From IMG/VR virus record IMGVR_UViG_2802429217_000005, positions 1 through 38,049 of that record: DNA of 38,049 bases; one strand, 5' to 3'. Each line of letters begins with the position of its first letter. Position 1 is the stretch's first letter. Under the pieces are notes generated by a model. That model was not told the DNA's origin. It was given only the letters and a program-made list of their open reading frames with translations, and did not search any database. The position numbers were made by a program, and so were the translations under genes. This DNA is from a virus (lineage: Duplodnaviria; Heunggongvirae; Uroviricota; Caudoviricetes). Below, piece by piece: positions 3,011 through 38,049 of this stretch.

Positions 3011-3841
3011 ACCGGACTCCTCCTGCGATCCCTTCTGATACTGTCATCAGCATTACGTCATCCTCCGTCATGTCCGCCACATCCGGGGAAGTAGGGATAA
3101 CTTCATTCCCGTCCGGGCCAAAGCGGACACCTCCGGCAAGCCCTGCCGCTTTCTGCATCAGCACATCATCTTCAGGCTCTTCGTCAGCCTCACGCCGGTT
3201 CAGCAGACTGAAATCCAGCGGATGCATATCCGGATCGCTGAAAAACAGGCTGAGCACGGTGTACGTCAGCCCGGAAAAGTGCATATCCAGCAGAACATCA
3301 TGAAAATAATGGGTACTGTAAAAGCGGTGCCAGTCGGCATACTCCGTGGATGACATCCCGGCAAGCATGGCACGCCAGTCGGGTCGCCCCATCTCACGCG
3401 CCAGTTTCAGGGCAAAACTCAGCTCACCGTCGAACACTTTCCCGCAGAAACAGGCTCTGCGGGCCCGGCGTCCTCTGTCTGTTCAGGGGCATTATTCACC
3501 ACAAACTCATACATACCAGACAACCGGTACACCACGTTTTCAGCATGAGAAATTGCCTCTGTAGGCCAGGTGGTAAGCACTTCCTGCTCAATCTGTTTAA
3601 CGGCTTCATTCATGGACGGCATCTGCGTCTTCTGCGGATGGTTATGCCACAGGGACATCGCCACCAGAAACGCGCCGGTTCTGATGGCGTCTTCCACAGT
3701 AAACTTCCGGTTGCTGTCTGACTCCGCCTGTTCTGCCTGCCGTTTCATCAGGGCGAGATGCTCAATACGCTGCAGGGCTGACAGTTCAGAAAGCGTGACG
3801 GTCACGCCGTTATGTTCAAATGATTCGGTTTTCAGGAACAT
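3003..3841 (-). CDS. T: tail assembly chaperone G-T fusion made by programmed -1 ribosomal frameshift
   Basis: The -1 frame downstream of the GGGAAAG heptamer stays open to 3003 and encodes a lambda gpT-like sequence (FDGELSFALKLAREMGRPDWRAMLAGMSS...); the T frame has no start of its own apart from the track's GTG artefact. Confidence 0.75.
3419..3841 (-). CDS. G: tail assembly chaperone G
   Basis: 140-aa ORF MFLKTESFEHNGVTVTLSELSALQRIEHLALMKRQ... matching lambda gpG; ends ...AGKCSTVS with the slippery site in its last codons. Confidence 0.9.
   Translation of the reverse strand: MFLKTESFEHNGVTVTLSELSALQRIEHLALMKRQAEQAESDSNRKFTVEDAIRTGAFLVAMSLWHNHPQKTQMPSMNEAVKQIEQEVLTTWPTEAISHAENVVYRLSGMYEFVVNNAPEQTEDAGPAEPVSAGKCSTVS
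3437..3443 (-). promoter_or_regulatory. slippery heptamer G GGA AAG for the G to G-T -1 frameshift
   Basis: Plus-strand CTTTCCC at 3437-3443 is GGGAAAG on the minus strand, in phase X XXY YYZ with G codons 133-135 (Ala-Gly-Lys). Confidence 0.8.
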
Positions 3842-3856
3842 CGCTGACTCTCCGGA

Positions 3857-4597
3857 TTAACTGTCGGTGACAGTGATTTCTGCAACCGCAGCAAGTTCAC
3901 CATTACCGGATACAACCGGAATGTTGACCTTACCTGCAGCAACGCCTTTCACGGTGATGGTCATACCACTGACCGACACGGTGGCTTTTGTTTTATCCGC
4001 TGACACCGCACGGAAGCTCTTGTCAGTTGCGCCCTCCGGCTGGAATGCCACGGTCAGCGTGGTGCTCTGCCCTTTCACCACCGAGGAGCTGGCAGGCGTC
4101 ACAGTCATACCGGTTGCCGCCGTCACCGTACTGCGATCTTCTGCCATTGACGGACGGCCCACATTGGTGACCTTCACCGTACGGGTGATCACTTCCTTCG
4201 CCGTCACCGCCTTACCGATACTGCTGACCCAGCCACGGAACACATCGACCGTGCCGTTCGGGAAGCGGATTTTATAGGCACGGGTATCACCTTCATTAAA
4301 CCACGCCAGCAGCGCCTGCTGCCCCTGCTCTCCGGGCATCCACGCCAGCGTGAAGCTGGTATCTCCGGCGGATTTCTGCCCCTGCCCGGTCGCGGTCCAG
4401 TCCGCATCTTCATCATCGAGATAACTGTCGTCATAGGACTCAGCGGTCAGTTCGCCGGGCGTCAGGTCTTTAACTTTAGCCAGACGCGACCAGTCAACGT
4501 CTGAAAGCGGGTTCGCATAAGGGTCGCCGCTCCCGTTATAAACCCACAGGGTGGTCCCGGCACCTTTCACCGGTATTGCTGGATTTGGTACAGGCAT
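3857..4597 (-). CDS. V: major tail tube protein V
   Basis: Protein from the internal ATG at 4597 ([20 protein letters not shown]..., 246 aa) matches lambda gpV including the C-terminal Ig-like region; GAGGA Shine-Dalgarno 5 nt upstream. The track ORF is extended 10 codons upstream. Confidence 0.93.
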
Positions 4598-24503: not shown

Positions 24504-24659
24504 TTACTCCTCAGGTTCGTAAGCTGTGAAGACAGCGACCTCCGTTTGGCTGGTTCGGATTCGTACCTCACAGAGATCTTTCCTCGTTACCAGTGCCGTC
24601 ACAATGACGGTTAAACAGATGACGATCAGGGCGATTAACATCGCCTTTTGCTGCTCCAT
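24504..24659 (-). CDS. hok: Hok-family type I toxin (HokD/RelF-like)
   Basis: 51-codon ORF missed by the >=60-aa track: MEQQKAMLIALIVICLTVIVTALVTRKDLCEVRIRTSQTEVAVFTAYEPEE, near-identical to E. coli HokD as recalled; AGGAG 9 nt upstream. Confidence 0.85.
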   Translation of the reverse strand: MEQQKAMLIALIVICLTVIVTALVTRKDLCEVRIRTSQTEVAVFTAYEPEE

Positions 24660-24841
24660 AGCCTGCTTCTCCTAGCCTTTCGGCACGTAAGAGGCTAACC
24701 TACATTTGTGAGACATAGATTGGGCCTCAGATTAATGTTAAGCGTCTTGCAGGACGCTTAATGTTAACTGTGCTTTTCTTTATCTGCCTTTTGGTGTTCA
24801 TGCCTGAGACAGATAGCCTCAATCACCCGCAGCGATTTTAC

Positions 24842-30893: not shown

Positions 30894-31117
30894 GAATCAT
30901 TCTTTCCTTCGTTCAAGGTGTTATCCTTCTTTTTGTAAAGTTCTGGGTTCAAAGATAATTTTCCCTTGGAGTATGCGGCAGCTTCCGCGGCCCTCCCCTT
31001 GGGAACTATTTCACCAGGACGTTTGCGCCACATGTATATAGCTTCACGGGTTATCCCATAAAAATCGGCAACTCTCTGAACAGAGCCAAAAAACTGGACA
31101 AGTTCATCAACTCGCAT
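30890..31117 (-). CDS. Cro/DicC-like small HTH regulator
   Basis: 75-aa ORF MRVDELVQFFGSVQRVADFYGITREAIYMWRKRPGEIVPKGRAAEAAAY... resembling DicC/YdaS-type Cro analogues; AGGAGGG Shine-Dalgarno; divergent from the repressor gene. Confidence 0.6.
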   Translation of the reverse strand: MRVDELVQFFGSVQRVADFYGITREAIYMWRKRPGEIVPKGRAAEAAAYSKGKLSLNPELYKKKDNTLNEGKNDS

Positions 31118-31209
31118 TTCACCCTCCTAAAACTAAGTATTTTTAGATTAAAGGATAATTTTTTTTAGGTCAATGCAATCTAAAATAATTTATATTCAAT
31201 TCACGGGAG
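31118..31209. promoter_or_regulatory. divergent promoter/operator region between the cro-like and repressor genes
   Basis: 92-bp AT-rich spacer with dyads CTAAAACTAAGTATTTTTAG (31127-31146) and TTTTAG-N11-CTAAAA (31163-31185); candidate leftward -35 TTGACC / -10 TAATCT and rightward -10 TATATT. Confidence 0.5.
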
Positions 31210-31860
31210 ATGATGATGGAAAGCCTTGGCATTAGGCTTAAGAGACTCAGAAAAGACAAGGGACTGACCCAAGTCGAACTGGGCAAGCTTTCTGGCGTAA
31301 CAGGGGTAACTATAGGGTACTGGGAGAAAGACCTAAACGAACCCGGTAGCAAAGCTCTTAGTAAATTAGCCCAAGCACTAGGAACTACTGAGTCCTATCT
31401 CCTATATGGAGTATCGTCTACTGAACCTACCCTTGTGCAGAACAATTCAGGCACCCAAATCCCCTATCTTTCATGGGGGGAAGCAATTTCTTTCCTAATT
31501 TTAGAAGGAGAGAAAACTATGGGAAATGCCGACAGAATCACCACATTCTTTGACGTCAAGGAGGGGGATTTTGCCGTTTCAATGCCTGATGACACTATGC
31601 ACAACCCATCAGGGTCGCCAAGCATTCCGGTTGGTGCCACAGTGATCATGAGGCCTAGAGAAAAATATAAAAATGGTAGTATCGTCGCTGTAATAGTCCC
31701 AGATCCGCTTACAAACGAACCATCTATGACTATAAAAAAATTAGTCATCGACGGAAAACTCGTGTATTTAAGCCCCCTCAATCCTCGCTATCAATCGTCC
31801 TTACTGACACCTGAATGTAAAATTGTTGCTGTAGCAAAAGGTGTGCAGTTCAGCCTATAG
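31210..31860 (+). CDS. CI-like prophage repressor (HTH-XRE N-terminus, S24 LexA-type peptidase C-terminus)
   Basis: 216-aa ORF; N-terminal LKRLRKDKGLTQVELGKLSGVTGVTIGYWE HTH; C-terminal FAVSMPDDTM ... IVAVIV ... MTIKKLV consistent with an S24 Ser/Lys autoprotease; GGGAGA Shine-Dalgarno. Confidence 0.85.
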   Translation: MMMESLGIRLKRLRKDKGLTQVELGKLSGVTGVTIGYWEKDLNEPGSKALSKLAQALGTTESYLLYGVSSTEPTLVQNNSGTQIPYLSWGEAISFLILEGEKTMGNADRITTFFDVKEGDFAVSMPDDTMHNPSGSPSIPVGATVIMRPREKYKNGSIVAVIVPDPLTNEPSMTIKKLVIDGKLVYLSPLNPRYQSSLLTPECKIVAVAKGVQFSL

Positions 31861-31883
31861 CTTCCACTTTGTTTTTCAATCAG

Positions 31884-31908
31884 AGGTCGGCTTTGTCGAC
31901 CTTTTTTT
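31884..31908 (+). terminator. candidate intrinsic terminator after the repressor gene
   Basis: AGGTCG-GCTTTGT-CGACCT hairpin followed by TTTTTTT. Confidence 0.6.
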
Positions 31909-31930
31909 AAATATATCTAGATCACACTTG

Positions 31931-31962
31931 ACTATAAAACTAAATAGATTTAGTTTTATAGT
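31931..31962. repeat. 32-bp palindrome with 15-bp perfect arms (candidate operator)
   Basis: ACTATAAAACTAAAT-AG-ATTTAGTTTTATAGT; arms perfectly complementary apart from the central dinucleotide; overlaps a TTGACT hexamer. Confidence 0.45.
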
Positions 31963-32056
31963 ATACCACCCCACCCCGCCCCACAGAACGCAGGGCAATA
32001 CTTCGAGTTACCAGGCAGTGGTCTGGGGTTAAGTAGCCAGCCCGAGGCGTAAGAAC

Positions 32057-32290
32057 ATGACGGCAGGGTTCAACTTTAACTATGCAGCAGGTTTTTGTTC
32101 CGCCACCCCGGCGTTAAGGGGAAATGAGGTCAGCATGGATACTATCGATCTTGGCAACAGCGAATCTCTGGTATGTGGCGTGTTCCCCAACCAGGACGGT
32201 ACGTTCACCGCGATGACATATACCAAAAGCAAAACGTTTAAAACCGAATCTGGCGCGCGTCGCTGGCTGGAAAGAAATTCAGGTGAGTGA
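32057..32290 (+). CDS. YdfA-like (DUF1391) small protein
   Basis: The C-terminal 51 aa from the ATG at 32135 (MDTIDLGNSESLVCGVFPNQDGTFTAMTYTKSKTFKTESGARRWLERNSGE) match E. coli YdfA as recalled; the longer 77-codon frame is also open. Confidence 0.6.
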   Translation: MTAGFNFNYAAGFCSATPALRGNEVSMDTIDLGNSESLVCGVFPNQDGTFTAMTYTKSKTFKTESGARRWLERNSGE

Positions 32291-32291
32291 T

Positions 32292-32420
32292 ATGGATTTC
32301 GACGCAATCATGGAAAAGGCTTACGAAGAATACTTCGAAGGCCTTGCCGAAGGCGAAGAAGCTCTCAGCTTCAGCGAATTTAAACAGGCGCTTTCCAGTT
32401 CGGCAAAAGCTAACAACTGA
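32292..32420 (+). CDS. YdfB-like small acidic protein
   Basis: 42-codon ORF missed by the track: MDFDAIMEKAYEEYFEGLAEGEEALSFSEFKQALSSSAKANN; starts 2 nt after the ydfA-like stop. Confidence 0.55.
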   Translation: MDFDAIMEKAYEEYFEGLAEGEEALSFSEFKQALSSSAKANN

Positions 32421-32512
32421 GAAGTTTATGATGGAATTGAGAGTTTGTTTCAAACTCTCAATAAACCAGAGGCAGGTAAGGAGCGTTAAATTATTGCTTG
32501 AGAGCAATAAGA

Positions 32513-33046
32513 TCACTCAATCTCACCGCTATAGGCATTCCATCTGAGCATGAGTGCACGCCAGAAAATATCGTTTATGTGCAAAACACAGTATGGATTT
32601 TCGTCGGGAAGGAGTTGCCCTTCCATGGGGAGCAAAATATTAGCAGATACCAGTTTTTTTATATCAGAATTATTGCGTACAGCATGGATCACAGGATAGT
32701 TCCTCGATAATGCCGTAATAAGAATTTTTTTCTGACCCGCAGTCAAGGAATCGATAACTGCATTGATATGACTGATTATTTTTTGTTCTCTTGTATTGTT
32801 CCGGTGACTTCGCCAGATCTTACGAAGAAATAAAGCTAAACGTTGGAGATTTATAGCCAGCACAAAAGAAAAGGCAAAAACGAATACCGGGTAAATATAA
32901 GGAATGCTGATTTTGTCTTGAACATACTCCGGTACAGAATCAGGCATAAAGAGCAATATCAAAACAAAGATAATAAGCATATACATAAGGCGCTCTAAGG
33001 GTTCGTTACTGAATAACTTGCTCAACAAGCCGAATACATCAGGCAT
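32513..33046 (-). CDS. membrane protein of unknown function, encoded antisense within the ydfAB-dicF operon
   Basis: 177-aa ORF with two N-terminal hydrophobic segments and a soluble C-terminal domain; visibly AT-rich; opposite strand to the flanking early-left genes. Confidence 0.5.
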   Translation of the reverse strand: MPDVFGLLSKLFSNEPLERLMYMLIIFVLILLFMPDSVPEYVQDKISIPYIYPVFVFAFSFVLAINLQRLALFLRKIWRSHRNNTREQKIISHINAVIDSLTAGQKKILITALSRNYPVIHAVRNNSDIKKLVSANILLPMEGQLLPDENPYCVLHINDIFWRALMLRWNAYSGEIE

Positions 33047-33357
33047 ATTAATAACTCTCTACTGTAAGGGTATTAAAATGTTATCACAGACTCTCGCTGT
33101 AGGGGTATAGCCGAGACCACCGAGCCTGAAGTGGTAAAAAGACAGGCACACAACACGAAAGCGCACGGCGAGGCTGTTAGTTCATAAATGGTCTGTCGTT
33201 AAATTTACGTCGACCGTGCGCTTCCGGTTGTGGCACTCCGCGAAATGGCGCGGCGGTAAGTATGGCGGGGTTATTCCTTCCCCCGTTGAGGACACCGGGT
33301 TGTCAGGTTGACCATACGCTTAAGTGACAACCCCGCTGCAACGCCCTCTGTTATCAT

Positions 33358-33415
33358 TTTTCTGGTGACGTTTGGCGGTATCAGTTTTACTCCGTGACTG
33401 CTCTGCCGCCCTTTT
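33358..33415 (+). ncRNA. dicF: DicF small RNA
   Basis: TTTCTGGTGACGTTTGGCGGTATCAGTTTTACTCCGTGACTGCTCTGCCGCCC followed by TTTTT matches the recalled 53-nt DicF sequence and its terminator. Confidence 0.8.
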
Positions 33416-33590
33416 TAAAGTGAATTTTGTGATGTGGTGAATGCGGCTGAGCGCACGCGGAACAGTTAAAACCAAAAACAGTGAAATGGGTGGATTCTCT
33501 GTATCCGGCGTTAATTGTTAACTGGTTAACGTCACCTGGAGGCACCAGGCACCGCATCAACAAAGTTCATTTGTAAAAATGGAGATAATT

Positions 33591-33812
33591 ATGATTGCTC
33601 ATCACTTCGGAACTGATGAGATTCCTCGTCAGTGCGTGACTCCCGGTGATTATGTTATTCATAAAGGAAGAACATATATTGCTTCGGTAAACAACATTAA
33701 AAAACAACGGCTCTATATTCGTGATTTTTCCACACAACACTGTATTAAGGAAACCATGATTAAAGTCTTCCTTGGTCGTGATGGTTTACCTGTAAAAGCA
33801 GAGTCATGGTGA
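33591..33812 (+). CDS. hypothetical protein in the position DicB occupies in Qin
   Basis: 73 aa from the ATG at 33591 (GGAG 6 nt upstream); does not resemble DicB as I recall it; function unknown. Confidence 0.4.
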
Positions 33813-33935
33813 GCAGTAATAAAATAACTGCCACAATACGACATTCAGCTTAATGAATACATCAGATTTGATTCTTATATGCCAGCAATGGCAGGGATTT
33901 GTTCACCCTTAAATCTGTAATGAGGTTAAAACAAA

Positions 33936-36410
33936 ATGAGTAAAGTCTTTATTTGCGCCGCCATTCCTGACGAACAGGCAATTACGGAAGAAGGTGCAGT
34001 TGCTGTAGCCACTGCCATCGAAGCTGGTGACGAACGCCGCGCCCGTGCCAAATTTACCTGGCAATTCCTGGAGCAATATCCGGCTGCTCAGGACTGTGCT
34101 TATAAATTTCTTGTCTGCGAGGATAAACCCGGCATGGCCCGCCCTGCCCTTGGTTCCTGGGATACCGAATATATGCAGGAAAACCGCTGGGATGAGGGAT
34201 CGTCTTCCTTTGTCCCGGTCGAACCAGAGCCGAATACAGAAATTGTTAACTTTAATCAGTTATCCGACGACAAACAGGCCGCTGTTCTCGTTAAGTTTGG
34301 CGCACATGAAAACGTCACCGTGGATATGGTCATCAACGCAAGCGGGCTTCTTGGCGATGACGACATGATGACCTTTGACGGACACCTCGCAGAGGCAATT
34401 ATCCGGACTAAAGAAATTAACGCCATGTATCCGGAACGTCAGATTGAATACATCAACGATGCCAGACGTGATTTAAAACCAACCGCCAAATGGCCCGACG
34501 TTCAGGCATATTTTCTCGACCGTAAAAAACGCCAGGAAAAGGAGCGCAAAGAAGGTGGTGCATATACTTCTGTTGTTGATCTCGCCCGCGCCAGCGTCAA
34601 CCGGCAGAACACTGAAAACTCAGTAGCAAAAATCAACCCTGTCACTACTGCCATTCGTCGCGAATACAAGCAGACATGGAAAACACTGGATGATGAACTG
34701 GCCTACGCTCTGTGGCCTGGTGACATTGATGCCGGAAACATTGACGGCAGCATCCATCGCTGGGCAAAAAATGAAGTTATCGACAACGACCGCGAAGACT
34801 GGAAGCGTATCTCGGCATCAATGCGCAAACAACCTGATGCCCTTCGCTACGACCGCCAGACTATTTTTGGCCTTGTCCGTGAACGTCCGATCGACATTCA
34901 CAAAGACCCTGTGGCACTGAACAAATACATTACTGAATACCTGACTACAAAGGGCGTGTTTGAAGATGAAGGAAGAAATCAGAGCGCAACTGATACTCTC
35001 TCGTCGCCAGTACCAGAAACTGATGCAGTGGAAACGGCAATTCCGGACAACGAAAAAACCGAATGCAAAGTGGAAGTCGAACCATCTGTAGAGCGTGAGG
35101 GGCCGTTCTACTTCCTCTTCACCGACAAGGATGGCGAAAAATACGGTCGCGCAAACAAACTTTCTGGTCTGGATAAGGCACTGGCTGCCGGGGCTACTGA
35201 AATCACGAAAGAAGAATATTTCGCCCGCAAAAACGGTACATACTCAGGTTCACAACAAAATACTGGTGCATCTGATACGACCGCACAACCAGGGCCGGTA
35301 AAAGTTACCGCTGACGAAGTAAACAAAATTATGCAGGCAGCCAATATCAGCCAGCCTGACGCCGATGAACTGCTTGCAGTATCACGCGGTGAATTTGTTG
35401 CAGGGATTAGCGATCCGAATGATCCGAAATGGGTAAAGGGGATTGAAACCCGCGATTCTGTGAACCAGAACCAGCAAGAAACGGAACAGAACGATCAGAA
35501 AGCGGAACAAAACAGCCCAAATACGCAACAAAACGAGCCAGAAACGAAACAACCTGAACCAGTAGTGCAACAGGAACCGAAAAAGATCTGCACCGCCTGC
35601 GGTCAGAGCGGTGGCGGCAACTGCCATGATTGTGGTGCGCTGATGGGCGACGCAACATACCAGGAAACATTCGATGACAAGAACCAGGTTGAAGTTCAGG
35701 AAGACGATTCGGAGAAAATGGAAGGCGCTGAACATCCACACAAGGGGAATGCTGGCAGCGCTCAGGACCACGCCAGCGATAGTGAAACTGGCGAGAGGGC
35801 AGATCCCTTAATTACGGTGAACGGTCATCACGTTATCACATCCACCAGCAGGACGTGTGACCATCTAATGATCGACCTTGAAACCATGGGAAAAAATCCT
35901 GATGCCCCGATCATCTCAATAGGTGCAATATTTTTCGATCCGCAAACCGGAGATATGGGACCGGAATTTAGTAAGACTATCGATCTGGAAACTGCTGGCG
36001 GAGTCATTGATCGGGACACCATTAAATGGTGGCTTAAGCAATCACGCGAAGCGCAATCTGCCATTATGACCGATGAAATCCCGTTAGATGATGCACTGTT
36101 ACAATTGCGGGAATTTATCGACGAAAACTCCGGTGAATTTTTTGTTCAGGTTTGGGGAAATGGAGCCAACTTCGACAACACGATTTTGCGCCGTTCATAC
36201 GAACGGCAGGGGATCCCCTGCCCGTGGCGTTACTACAACGATCGCGATGTACGCACAATCGTTGAGCTGGGGAAAGCCATAGACTTCGATGCCAGAACGG
36301 CTATTCCATTCGAAGGTGAGCGCCATAATGCACTTGATGACGCCCGTTACCAGGCAAAATACGTTTCAGTTATCTGGCAAAAACTTATCCCGAGTCAGGC
36401 TGATTCTTAA
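33936..36410 (+). CDS. RecE-like exonuclease: large N-terminal region plus C-terminal DEDDh (DnaQ-like) 3'-5' exonuclease domain
   Basis: 824-aa ORF; central block LLAVSRGEFVAGISDPNDPKWVKGIETRD resembles RecE; C-terminus has LMIDLETMG, WGNGANFDNTIL and HNALDDARY (DEDDh-like); Cys cluster CTACGQSGGGNCHDCG. Confidence 0.7.
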   Translation: MSKVFICAAIPDEQAITEEGAVAVATAIEAGDERRARAKFTWQFLEQYPAAQDCAYKFLVCEDKPGMARPALGSWDTEYMQENRWDEGSSSFVPVEPEPNTEIVNFNQLSDDKQAAVLVKFGAHENVTVDMVINASGLLGDDDMMTFDGHLAEAIIRTKEINAMYPERQIEYINDARRDLKPTAKWPDVQAYFLDRKKRQEKERKEGGAYTSVVDLARASVNRQNTENSVAKINPVTTAIRREYKQTWKTLDDELAYALWPGDIDAGNIDGSIHRWAKNEVIDNDREDWKRISASMRKQPDALRYDRQTIFGLVRERPIDIHKDPVALNKYITEYLTTKGVFEDEGRNQSATDTLSSPVPETDAVETAIPDNEKTECKVEVEPSVEREGPFYFLFTDKDGEKYGRANKLSGLDKALAAGATEITKEEYFARKNGTYSGSQQNTGASDTTAQPGPVKVTADEVNKIMQAANISQPDADELLAVSRGEFVAGISDPNDPKWVKGIETRDSVNQNQQETEQNDQKAEQNSPNTQQNEPETKQPEPVVQQEPKKICTACGQSGGGNCHDCGALMGDATYQETFDDKNQVEVQEDDSEKMEGAEHPHKGNAGSAQDHASDSETGERADPLITVNGHHVITSTSRTCDHLMIDLETMGKNPDAPIISIGAIFFDPQTGDMGPEFSKTIDLETAGGVIDRDTIKWWLKQSREAQSAIMTDEIPLDDALLQLREFIDENSGEFFVQVWGNGANFDNTILRRSYERQGIPCPWRYYNDRDVRTIVELGKAIDFDARTAIPFEGERHNALDDARYQAKYVSVIWQKLIPSQADS

Positions 36411-36753: not shown

Positions 36754-38049
36754 ATGAGAGAAGTTGAAATGAAATATCCGACAGGCGTGGAAAACCATGG
36801 AGGGAAATTACGTATCTGGTTTGTTTATAAAGGCGTAAGAGTCAGGGAAAATCTGGGGGTTCCTGACACAGCAAAAAACAGGCGCGTTGCAGGTGAACTA
36901 CGCTCCTCTGTTTGTTACGCAATAAAAACTGGTGTTTTCGACTATGCAAAACAGTTTCCCTCCTCACGCAATCTGGAAAAATTTGGTGAGGCCCGACAAG
37001 ATTTAACCATAAAAGAACTGGCTGAAAAATTTCTGGCACTGAAAGAAACTGAAGTCGCCAAAGCATCACTCAACACATACCGTGCCGTCATCAAAAATAT
37101 CCTGAGCATAATCGGTGAAAAAAATCTTGCCTCATCGATTAATAAAGAAAAATTACTGGAGGTTCGTAAAGAGCTACTGACTGGATACCAGATCCCCAAA
37201 AGTAACTATATTGTTACACAACCAGGGAGATCGGCTGTAACTGTAAATAATTACATGACAAATCTTAACGCCGTGTTCCAGTTTGGTGTTGATAACGGTT
37301 ACCTGGCAGATAATCCGTTTAAGGGGATCTCGCCATTAAAGGAATCAAGAACCATTCCTGATCCTCTTTCACGGGAGGAATTTATCCGTCTTATCGACGC
37401 CTGCAGAAATCAGCAGGCCAAAAATTTATGGTGTGTTTCTGTTTATACAGGCATTCGCCCTGGTGAACTGTGTGCGCTTGGGTGGGAGGACATAGATCTG
37501 AAAAATGGAACAATGATGATCAGGAGAAATTTAGCAAAAGATCGTTTTACGGTACCGAAAACACAGGCTGGTACCAATCGGGTAATTCACCTTATCAAGC
37601 CTGCAATCGACGCTCTCAGGAGTCAGATGACACTAACGAGGCTGAGCAAAGAACATATTATTGACGTTCACCTCAGAGAGTTCGGCAGAACAGAAAAACA
37701 AAAATGCACCTTTGTTTTTCAACCTGAAGTGTCAGCGAGAGTAAAAAATTATGGTGACCATTTTACCGTTGACTCAATAAGGCAGATGTGGGACGCAGCG
37801 ATAAAGCGCGCTGGCCTCCGCCACCGCAAATCATATCAGTCGAGACATACTTATGCCTGCTGGTCGTTGACAGCCGGTGCCAACCCGGCATTCATAGCAA
37901 ACCAGATGGGACATGCAGATGCGCAAATGGTGTTTCAGGTATACGGGAAATGGATGTCTGAAAACAATAATGCACAGGTAGCCCTGTTAAATACACAGCT
38001 AAGCGAGTTTGCCCCAACCATGCCCCAAAACGAGGTGGTGAAAAATTAA
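36754..38049 (+). CDS. int: tyrosine recombinase / phage integrase
   Basis: 431-aa ORF (possible true start at the ATG at 36769); C-terminal catalytic region with R...HxxR...Y-type motifs (HLIKPAIDALR, SRHTYACW, YGKWM); stop at the window end. Confidence 0.9.
   Translation: MREVEMKYPTGVENHGGKLRIWFVYKGVRVRENLGVPDTAKNRRVAGELRSSVCYAIKTGVFDYAKQFPSSRNLEKFGEARQDLTIKELAEKFLALKETEVAKASLNTYRAVIKNILSIIGEKNLASSINKEKLLEVRKELLTGYQIPKSNYIVTQPGRSAVTVNNYMTNLNAVFQFGVDNGYLADNPFKGISPLKESRTIPDPLSREEFIRLIDACRNQQAKNLWCVSVYTGIRPGELCALGWEDIDLKNGTMMIRRNLAKDRFTVPKTQAGTNRVIHLIKPAIDALRSQMTLTRLSKEHIIDVHLREFGRTEKQKCTFVFQPEVSARVKNYGDHFTVDSIRQMWDAAIKRAGLRHRKSYQSRHTYACWSLTAGANPAFIANQMGHADAQMVFQVYGKWMSENNNAQVALLNTQLSEFAPTMPQNEVVKN

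Follow-up and report, generated by a model that had tools for sequence, protein, structure and literature searches.

When produced at a low level, KilR of the Escherichia coli K-12 Rac prophage causes filamentation and the loss of Z-rings (PMC12482147, also citing Conter et al. 1996), and at a high level it yields lemon-shaped or round cells in which MreB is mislocalised (PMC12482147). Toxicity is suppressed by overproduction of FtsZ, but not by overproduction of MreBCD (PMC12482147, PMC5793797), and the C-terminal 12 residues of the protein are essential for it (PMC12482147). It persists in ftsA* delta-zipA cells, and is thus ZipA-independent (PMC12482147). ZipA independence and suppression by FtsZ distinguish KilR from DicB of the Qin/Kim dicBF operon, which acts through MinC and ZipA (PMC3961180). 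Experimental evidence for these family phenotypes (FtsZ suppression, Z-ring loss, MreB mislocalisation and ZipA independence) is reported in PMC3961180, PMC5793797 and PMC12482147, the last with reference to Conter et al. 1996; PMC12482147 also concludes that what KilR acts on directly has yet to be established, even for the K-12 protein. Rho/NusG normally keeps the K-12 Rac kilR gene silent (PMC12482147), and OxyS lifts this silencing during oxidative stress (PMC5793797). A statistical association has been described between KilR variants and the clinical outcome of O157:H7 infection (PMC12711010), and allele and context differences may therefore deserve attention.

In dicBF operons the division inhibitor follows the small RNA DicF. 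According to PMC5069750 (citing Faubladier et al. 1990), the 5' end of DicF is produced by RNase E, and its 3' end arises either by termination (53 nt) or by RNase III cleavage of the full-length transcript (72 nt).

Here, we consider an open reading frame downstream of DicF in a window of 38,049 nucleotides from a Caudoviricetes virus (IMG/VR record IMGVR_UViG_2802429217_000005, positions 1 to 38,049). We conclude that this frame, 33591-33812, is very probably the kil gene of a lambdoid prophage, encoding a KilR-type (Rac) inhibitor of FtsZ-dependent division that sits in the dicB slot.

Gene boundaries and coding evidence

The kil gene spans 33591..33812 on the + strand and comprises 73 codons and a stop. 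Its Shine-Dalgarno sequence, GGAG, can be read directly at 33581..33584 (+), 6 nt before the ATG at 33591, and is the same in Rac-type loci. The open reading frame listing gives a longer frame at the site (33579..33812, 77 aa), within which the ATG at 33591 is internal. We rejected the 77-aa reading, as the ATG at 33579 lacks a Shine-Dalgarno sequence and runs into that of the ATG at 33591, where the family profile begins. RefSeq annotates the same coordinates in a chromosome 99.7% identical to the window. The coordinates and 73-aa length proposed in the initial annotation are thus upheld by the agreement of the profile match (positions 1-73/73), the spacing of the GGAG and the RefSeq start. 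Its description of the gene as lying immediately after dicF is fair, since the 179 nt between the end of DicF and the kil ATG contain only 26- and 31-aa open reading frames, both inside a structured leader.

The frame is intact, and its codons differ from those of Rac-type kilR by 22.5 synonymous and 16.5 non-synonymous changes (dS 0.715, dN 0.104). Given the resulting dN/dS of 0.145, kil is under purifying selection. Antisense open reading frames at 33567..33740 and 33713..33844 overlap the kil region, in which the sense frame is the one that shows codon-level purifying selection.

A member of the KilR family

Is the protein, as initially proposed, unknown? It matches NCBIfam NF008465 (PRK11354, ‘FtsZ inhibitor protein’) at 140 bits, against a curated cutoff of 92, with residues 1-73 aligned to positions 1-73/73 of the profile, and it matches PHROG 294 (‘Kil protein for bacterial septation inhibition’) at 7.9e-33. 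An identical protein (100%), annotated ‘Kil protein’, is encoded by Escherichia phage Evi (LR597642), and 72/73 residues agree with RefSeq WP_000560213.1, which carries the note ‘Rac prophage Kil protein; Kil overexpression leads to morphological defects and inhibits cell division’. The protein is therefore a full-length member of the KilR/Kil family and, judged by these matches, a gene already known in kind, with a counterpart in an annotated phage. The expectation that a cell-division inhibitor would occupy this position agrees with the family assignment; the suggested alternative of a lysis modulator is without support.

Relative to Rac-type KilR (annotated ‘killing protein KilR’), 60/73 residues (82%) are identical. 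Residues 1-22 and 58-73, and with them the C-terminal 12, are unchanged, and the 13 differences are all confined to the barrel, in the stretch of residues 23-55. R13, G19, G65 and P67 do not vary even in homologues as distant as about 25-35% identity. Because 13/73 residues differ from the characterised KilR, the potency or target range of the window protein could differ from those of the characterised type.

KilR belongs to a small family. When 5.8 billion proteins were searched by word index, the homologues fell into 52 clusters, each from Escherichia, Shigella, Salmonella or Raoultella; exhaustive comparison of 1.84 billion representatives with a profile gave 38 hits at E <= 1e-3. The precomputed accession PF27398 is attached to all homologues in the large protein database, and a Pfam-A search with the 73-aa protein gave no match. 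Many RefSeq, PGAP and UniRef entries name members of the family ‘cell division protein FtsZ’, whereas NCBIfam says FtsZ inhibitor; the former is a propagated product-name error.

A sequence search of the PDB found no relative of solved structure, the best E-value being 0.56, to a ribosomal protein. The AlphaFold2 model of Kil (mean pLDDT 83) is a small beta-barrel with six strands over residues 8-61 and termini of low confidence (residues 1-5 below pLDDT 50, the last block at 58). This predicted beta-sheet core with short disordered termini agrees with the AlphaFold3 description of K-12 KilR, which has a beta core and 7 and 12 disordered terminal residues (PMC12482147).

The PHROG 294 label is also used for the lambda kil gene in NC_001416, and lambda kil lies in an analogous position, in the early-left operon near recombination genes, which raises the alternative that the protein is a homologue of lambda Kil, a ZipA-dependent peptide that sequesters FtsZ. 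We regard this as highly improbable. BLASTP against the 47-aa lambda Kil gave no alignment at E <= 100, and the kil genes of Rac, Mu and lambda are stated to be unrelated (PMC3961180). The phenotypes diverge as well, as K-12 KilR remains toxic in ftsA* delta-zipA cells, in which lambda Kil is harmless, and causes a rounding that lambda Kil does not (PMC12482147). Kinship with Rac-type KilR is thus preferred over kinship with lambda Kil.

Prophage context

Upstream of kil, on the + strand, a cI/LexA-like repressor with helix-turn-helix and S24 peptidase domains (31210..31860; PF01381 2.1e-12, PF00717 1e-10) is called ‘LexA family protein’ in the 99.7% identical genome, and is the probable controller of the operon with DicF and kil. 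It is followed by a DUF1391 (ydfA-like) gene identified by a domain match (32057-32290, +) and a 45-aa ydfB-like open reading frame (32283-32420, +). The superinfection exclusion gene sieB (32513-33046, domain and PHROG matches) sits inside the DicF/kil operon on the - strand, where Qin-type loci have ydfC, and transcription towards DicF and kil would therefore be antisense to sieB. A scan of the + strand from 31000 to 34100 found no sigma-70-like promoter.

Downstream, and in the same operon, is an 824-aa exonuclease gene (33936..36410, +; PF16473 2.9e-67, PHROG 2082 over its full length), annotated ‘exonuclease’ in the 99.7% identical genome and in the O157 dicF-dicB locus. The protein shares only its middle segment with RecE (NF007259, 268 bits against a cutoff of 1269), and its C-terminus is an Rv2179c-like 3'-5' exoribonuclease domain (PF16473), not the RecE nuclease domain. 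An excisionase gene lies between the exonuclease and the integrase, which begins at 36754 (+). The order is thus repressor, DUF1391/ydfA-like, ydfB-like, sieB (-), DicF, leader, kil, exonuclease, excisionase and integrase, a layout that reads as the dicB-operon or early-left type, here on the + strand. Elsewhere in the prophage, a sok antitoxin RNA (24657-24826, -; RF01794, 81.8 bits against a gathering score of 59) points to a toxin-antitoxin locus of the hok/sok type.

The proximity of sieB brings to mind a function in phage exclusion. DicB, which takes the slot in related loci, guards cells against phages by blocking their entry via ManYZ (PMC6832061), and the main role of Kil might likewise be defence, not control of division in the prophage’s own cycle. 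However, the PADLOC defence models gave no match, our literature searches found no published defence phenotype for KilR, and a defence role would not exclude an FtsZ mechanism. We consider it improbable that defence is the main role, and retain division inhibition of the KilR type as the preferred function.

DicF and a conserved structured leader

DicF occupies 33360..33411 (+) and comprises a 5' antisense seed and a Rho-independent terminator hairpin, both of them intact. It matches Rfam RF00039 at 76.7 bits, against a gathering score of 48 (E 2.2e-15, model 1-52/52), and is identical to the DicF of the O157 dicF-dicB locus.

Between the DicF terminator and kil, 33413..33590 (+) constitutes a structured leader, recognised from a sub-threshold STnc100 match, its predicted fold and RNAalifold. 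STnc100 (RF02076) matches at 33413-33598 with 37.8 bits, below the gathering score of 47 (E 1.4e-6). The closing stem has 19 pairs, joining 33419-33439 with 33550-33571, and encloses hairpins at 33443-33458, 33507-33533 and 33535-33549; the minimum free energy z-score is -4.0. In an RNAalifold alignment of 55 unique phage leaders, which are related sequences with positions 33531-33552 fixed by the search motif, both sides of the pair change at 33421/33569, 33432/33557, 33461/33504, 33510/33530 and 33511/33529. The leader is therefore a conserved structured RNA, with compensatory pairs in the closing stem. That stem is a probable RNase III processing site, because the 72-nt form of DicF would end near 33431, inside its 5' arm.

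The minimum free energy fold also pairs the DicF seed with early kil codons, which we rejected as a chance pairing. The RNAduplex energy of DicF with the kil start (-29.0 kcal/mol) compares with a shuffle mean of -26.5 ± 4.1, 25% of shuffles being as good, and DicF averages -30.2 against other 100-nt windows of the phage.

Exchange of dicB for kil

DNA alignments of three and of five sequences mapped the transition between locus types. Beginning at 33300 or earlier, the window shares about 98% identity with O157 dicF-dicB loci as far as a 28-nt block (33531..33558, +) that is invariant between dicB-type and Rac/kil-type loci, and that constitutes the 5' recombination joint. Upstream of the joint the bases are of dicB type, for example AAC at 33528-33530 (GCA in Rac). 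From 33559 on they are of Rac/kil type (an extra A at 33559, G at 33565, TTGTAAAAATGGAGATAATTATG), and the window is about 82% identical to the Rac/kil type through the coding region to about 33829. The swap point thus lies at the 3' foot of the closing stem of the conserved leader.

On the 3' side, DNA alignment identifies a remnant of the 5' end of ydaE that has lost its start codon (33813..33829, +) and is the end of Rac-type homology; Rac-type matches in the genome search stop at 33826-33827. Homology of dicB type returns at about 33850-33862, ahead of the exonuclease gene. On these alignments, kil is a Rac-type cassette recombined into the dicB slot, replacing dicB and ydfD (DUF1482) relative to the O157 dicF-dicB locus. 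A relationship to YdfD, raised at the outset, is without support. Where dicB-type homology resumes, upstream of the exonuclease gene, a terminator-like scan detected the hairpin TGCCAGCAATGGCA, followed by GGGATTTGTT (33880..33893, +). The hairpin is kept in dicB-type, kil-type and Rac-type loci, and could be a terminator or a processing site.

Might the protein instead be a strongly diverged DicB that recruits MinC to ZipA and FtsZ from the usual place after dicF? Its gene fills precisely the slot of dicB, coming first after DicF in a dicBF operon layout, with flanks about 98% identical to dicF-dicB loci, and PGAP places a ‘DicB pseudogene, missing C-terminus’ just upstream, at window positions 33481-33564 (4182-4265 in the 99.7% identical genome L001). 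Nevertheless, BLASTP against the 62-aa DicB of the O157 dicF-dicB locus produced no alignment at E <= 100. The initial statement that the protein does not match DicB is thereby borne out, and the clear DicB homology that was named beforehand as its refutation did not emerge in that search. DicB is also absent from the NCBIfam and Pfam matches of the 73-aa protein, for which the full-length KilR-family match above the cutoff was found instead. As for the PGAP fragment, in the dicB-type O157 locus (L003) the reading frame continues without a stop through the 35 codons ahead of the dicB ATG, and the fragment, which corresponds to this in-frame leader only, matches that pre-ATG extension and 0/62 residues of DicB. 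The pseudogene call in the leader is therefore an annotation artefact. Sequence comparison already refutes a diverged DicB, to which we assign practically no weight, and a KilR-type protein remains the preferred assignment.

A minority pairing of intact DicF with Kil

Some match to 33300-33900 occurs in 4642 of 5426 complete E. coli genomes, and 134 of the 5426 cover at least 80% of this region, that is DicF, kil and the downstream flank. To place these in a broader context, IMG/VR was scanned with a 22-nt leader motif, which gave at least 120 loci, not dereplicated, of which 108 complete loci were used. Among the matches listed, the first gene after the leader is dicB in 62 of the 108, 47 of which have the exact DicF seed, and kil in 30, of which just one has a canonical DicF seed. 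A 94-aa YdaE-like Cys-rich protein comes first in six and a protein of ~283 aa starting MLNVAIEN in five, again among the matches listed; single proteins of 42, 77 and 144 aa come first in three more, and two loci have no open reading frame there. Examples of loci with such alternative first genes are L018, L020, L049, L089 and L113 (within L007-L126).

Phage Evi has the same DicF-Kil layout, with its DicF at about 3771-3822 and an A-to-G change in the seed (GGTGGC vs GGTGAC). The Rac-type locus has a degenerate DicF (L004 2951-3006; 39.1 bits against a gathering score of 48) that has kept the hairpin and lost the seed. Hence DicF is as a rule accompanied by DicB, and Kil by a DicF relic that lacks the seed. 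The window, with an intact DicF and Kil, is a minority recombinant and the pairing is rare. Literature searches on KilR with FtsZ and Rac, and on DicF with KilR, found no description of a dicF-kil operon, although the arrangement is present, with kil annotated, in public records (phage Evi and the 99.7% identical genome). The new points are only mildly so: the precise swap joint at the foot of the structured leader, and the rarity of the DicF and Kil pairing.

The range of cargo in the slot (DicB, Kil, the 94-aa YdaE-like zinc-finger protein, the ~283-aa protein and others, among the matches listed) invites a broader reading. The site 3' of the DicF terminator and leader stem might be a place that lambdoid prophages reserve for exchanging cargo directed at host morphogenesis, with DicF plus Kil as a functional double hit on FtsZ and the other occupants as new inhibitors of division or shape. 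We offer this joint reading tentatively, and on balance doubt that it holds in full.

Proposed action on the host

Should the window operon behave as its parts suggest, loss of the repressor would allow its transcription. A fraction of the transcripts would end at the DicF terminator, producing 53-nt DicF, which blocks translation of ftsZ. Those that read through would probably be cut by RNase III in the leader stem, which would release 72-nt DicF and leave the kil mRNA with only a short 5' UTR, and expression of kil is predicted to depend on such read-through of the DicF terminator. Silencing by Rho/NusG, as in K-12, may apply to the window gene too. The protein, modelled as a small SH3-like beta-barrel with a flexible C-terminal tail, would by homology prevent Z-ring formation and cause filamentation. 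At high dose it would also delocalise MreB and produce lemon-shaped or round cells, as K-12 KilR does. Action in the manner of K-12 KilR is most likely because the essential C-terminal tail is identical in the window protein. The prophage would then hit FtsZ twice, at the mRNA level via DicF and at the protein level via Kil, whereas the commoner relatives pair DicF with the MinC/ZipA-dependent DicB.

A less eventful possibility is that the frame is an inert remnant, a decaying cargo gene of a defective prophage that is not expressed or is inactive. The gene lies behind a terminator, that of DicF, no promoter was detected nearby, the 3' side bears deletion scars with the start of ydaE lost, and Rac kilR itself is normally silent (PMC12482147). 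Set against these are the intact frame with a good Shine-Dalgarno sequence, the dN/dS of 0.145, a functional C-terminal tail identical to that of Rac-type KilR, the identical protein in the sequenced phage Evi, and the arrangement’s retention in about 134 complete E. coli genomes. We see only a slim chance that kil is inert, and favor an active KilR-type inhibitor.

Comparison with known systems

The analysis turns an apparently unknown gene into a known phage toxin predicted to arrest host division, and flags two database problems, the FtsZ misnaming in RefSeq/PGAP and the spurious PGAP ‘DicB pseudogene’ in the leader. The slot occupied by dicB is modular: one and the same RNA leader can be followed by either DicB or Kil, which are unrelated but have a cellular target in common. 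Unlike most of its relatives, this prophage pairs Kil with an apparently functional DicF. The biological points are modest, and nothing here changes what is known of the KilR family.

The leader resembles STnc100 (RF02076) in its closing helix and its CCUGGAGGCACCAGG hairpin, both of which can be aligned with the consensus of that family. It differs in being the 5' leader of kil or dicB, not a free-standing small RNA gene, and in scoring below the gathering threshold. Lambda Kil (47 aa) is, like the window protein by homology, an early-left operon product that blocks Z-ring assembly, and the two have a generic PHROG label in common, but lambda Kil is unrelated in sequence, ZipA-dependent and does not cause rounding (PMC12482147, PMC3961180). 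DicB is likewise a small division inhibitor and holds the place that Kil holds in the window, first behind DicF and the conserved leader of the same operon, but there is no sequence similarity between the two.

The closest described system is KilR of the E. coli Rac prophage, which is also 73 aa long, is 82% identical and has the first 22 and last 16 residues unchanged. The two loci agree in the Shine-Dalgarno sequence and in the 3' end of the leader, and in both of them kil is flanked by sieB, upstream and on the other strand, and by a recombination exonuclease gene, downstream, the Rac-type order being sieB (-), kilR, ydaE, recE. The loci differ in that the window has a canonical DicF where the Rac-type locus has only a degenerate copy, in that ydaE and the small gene that follows it are absent from the window, and in the exonuclease, which in the window is the 824-aa Rv2179c-domain type, not RecE.
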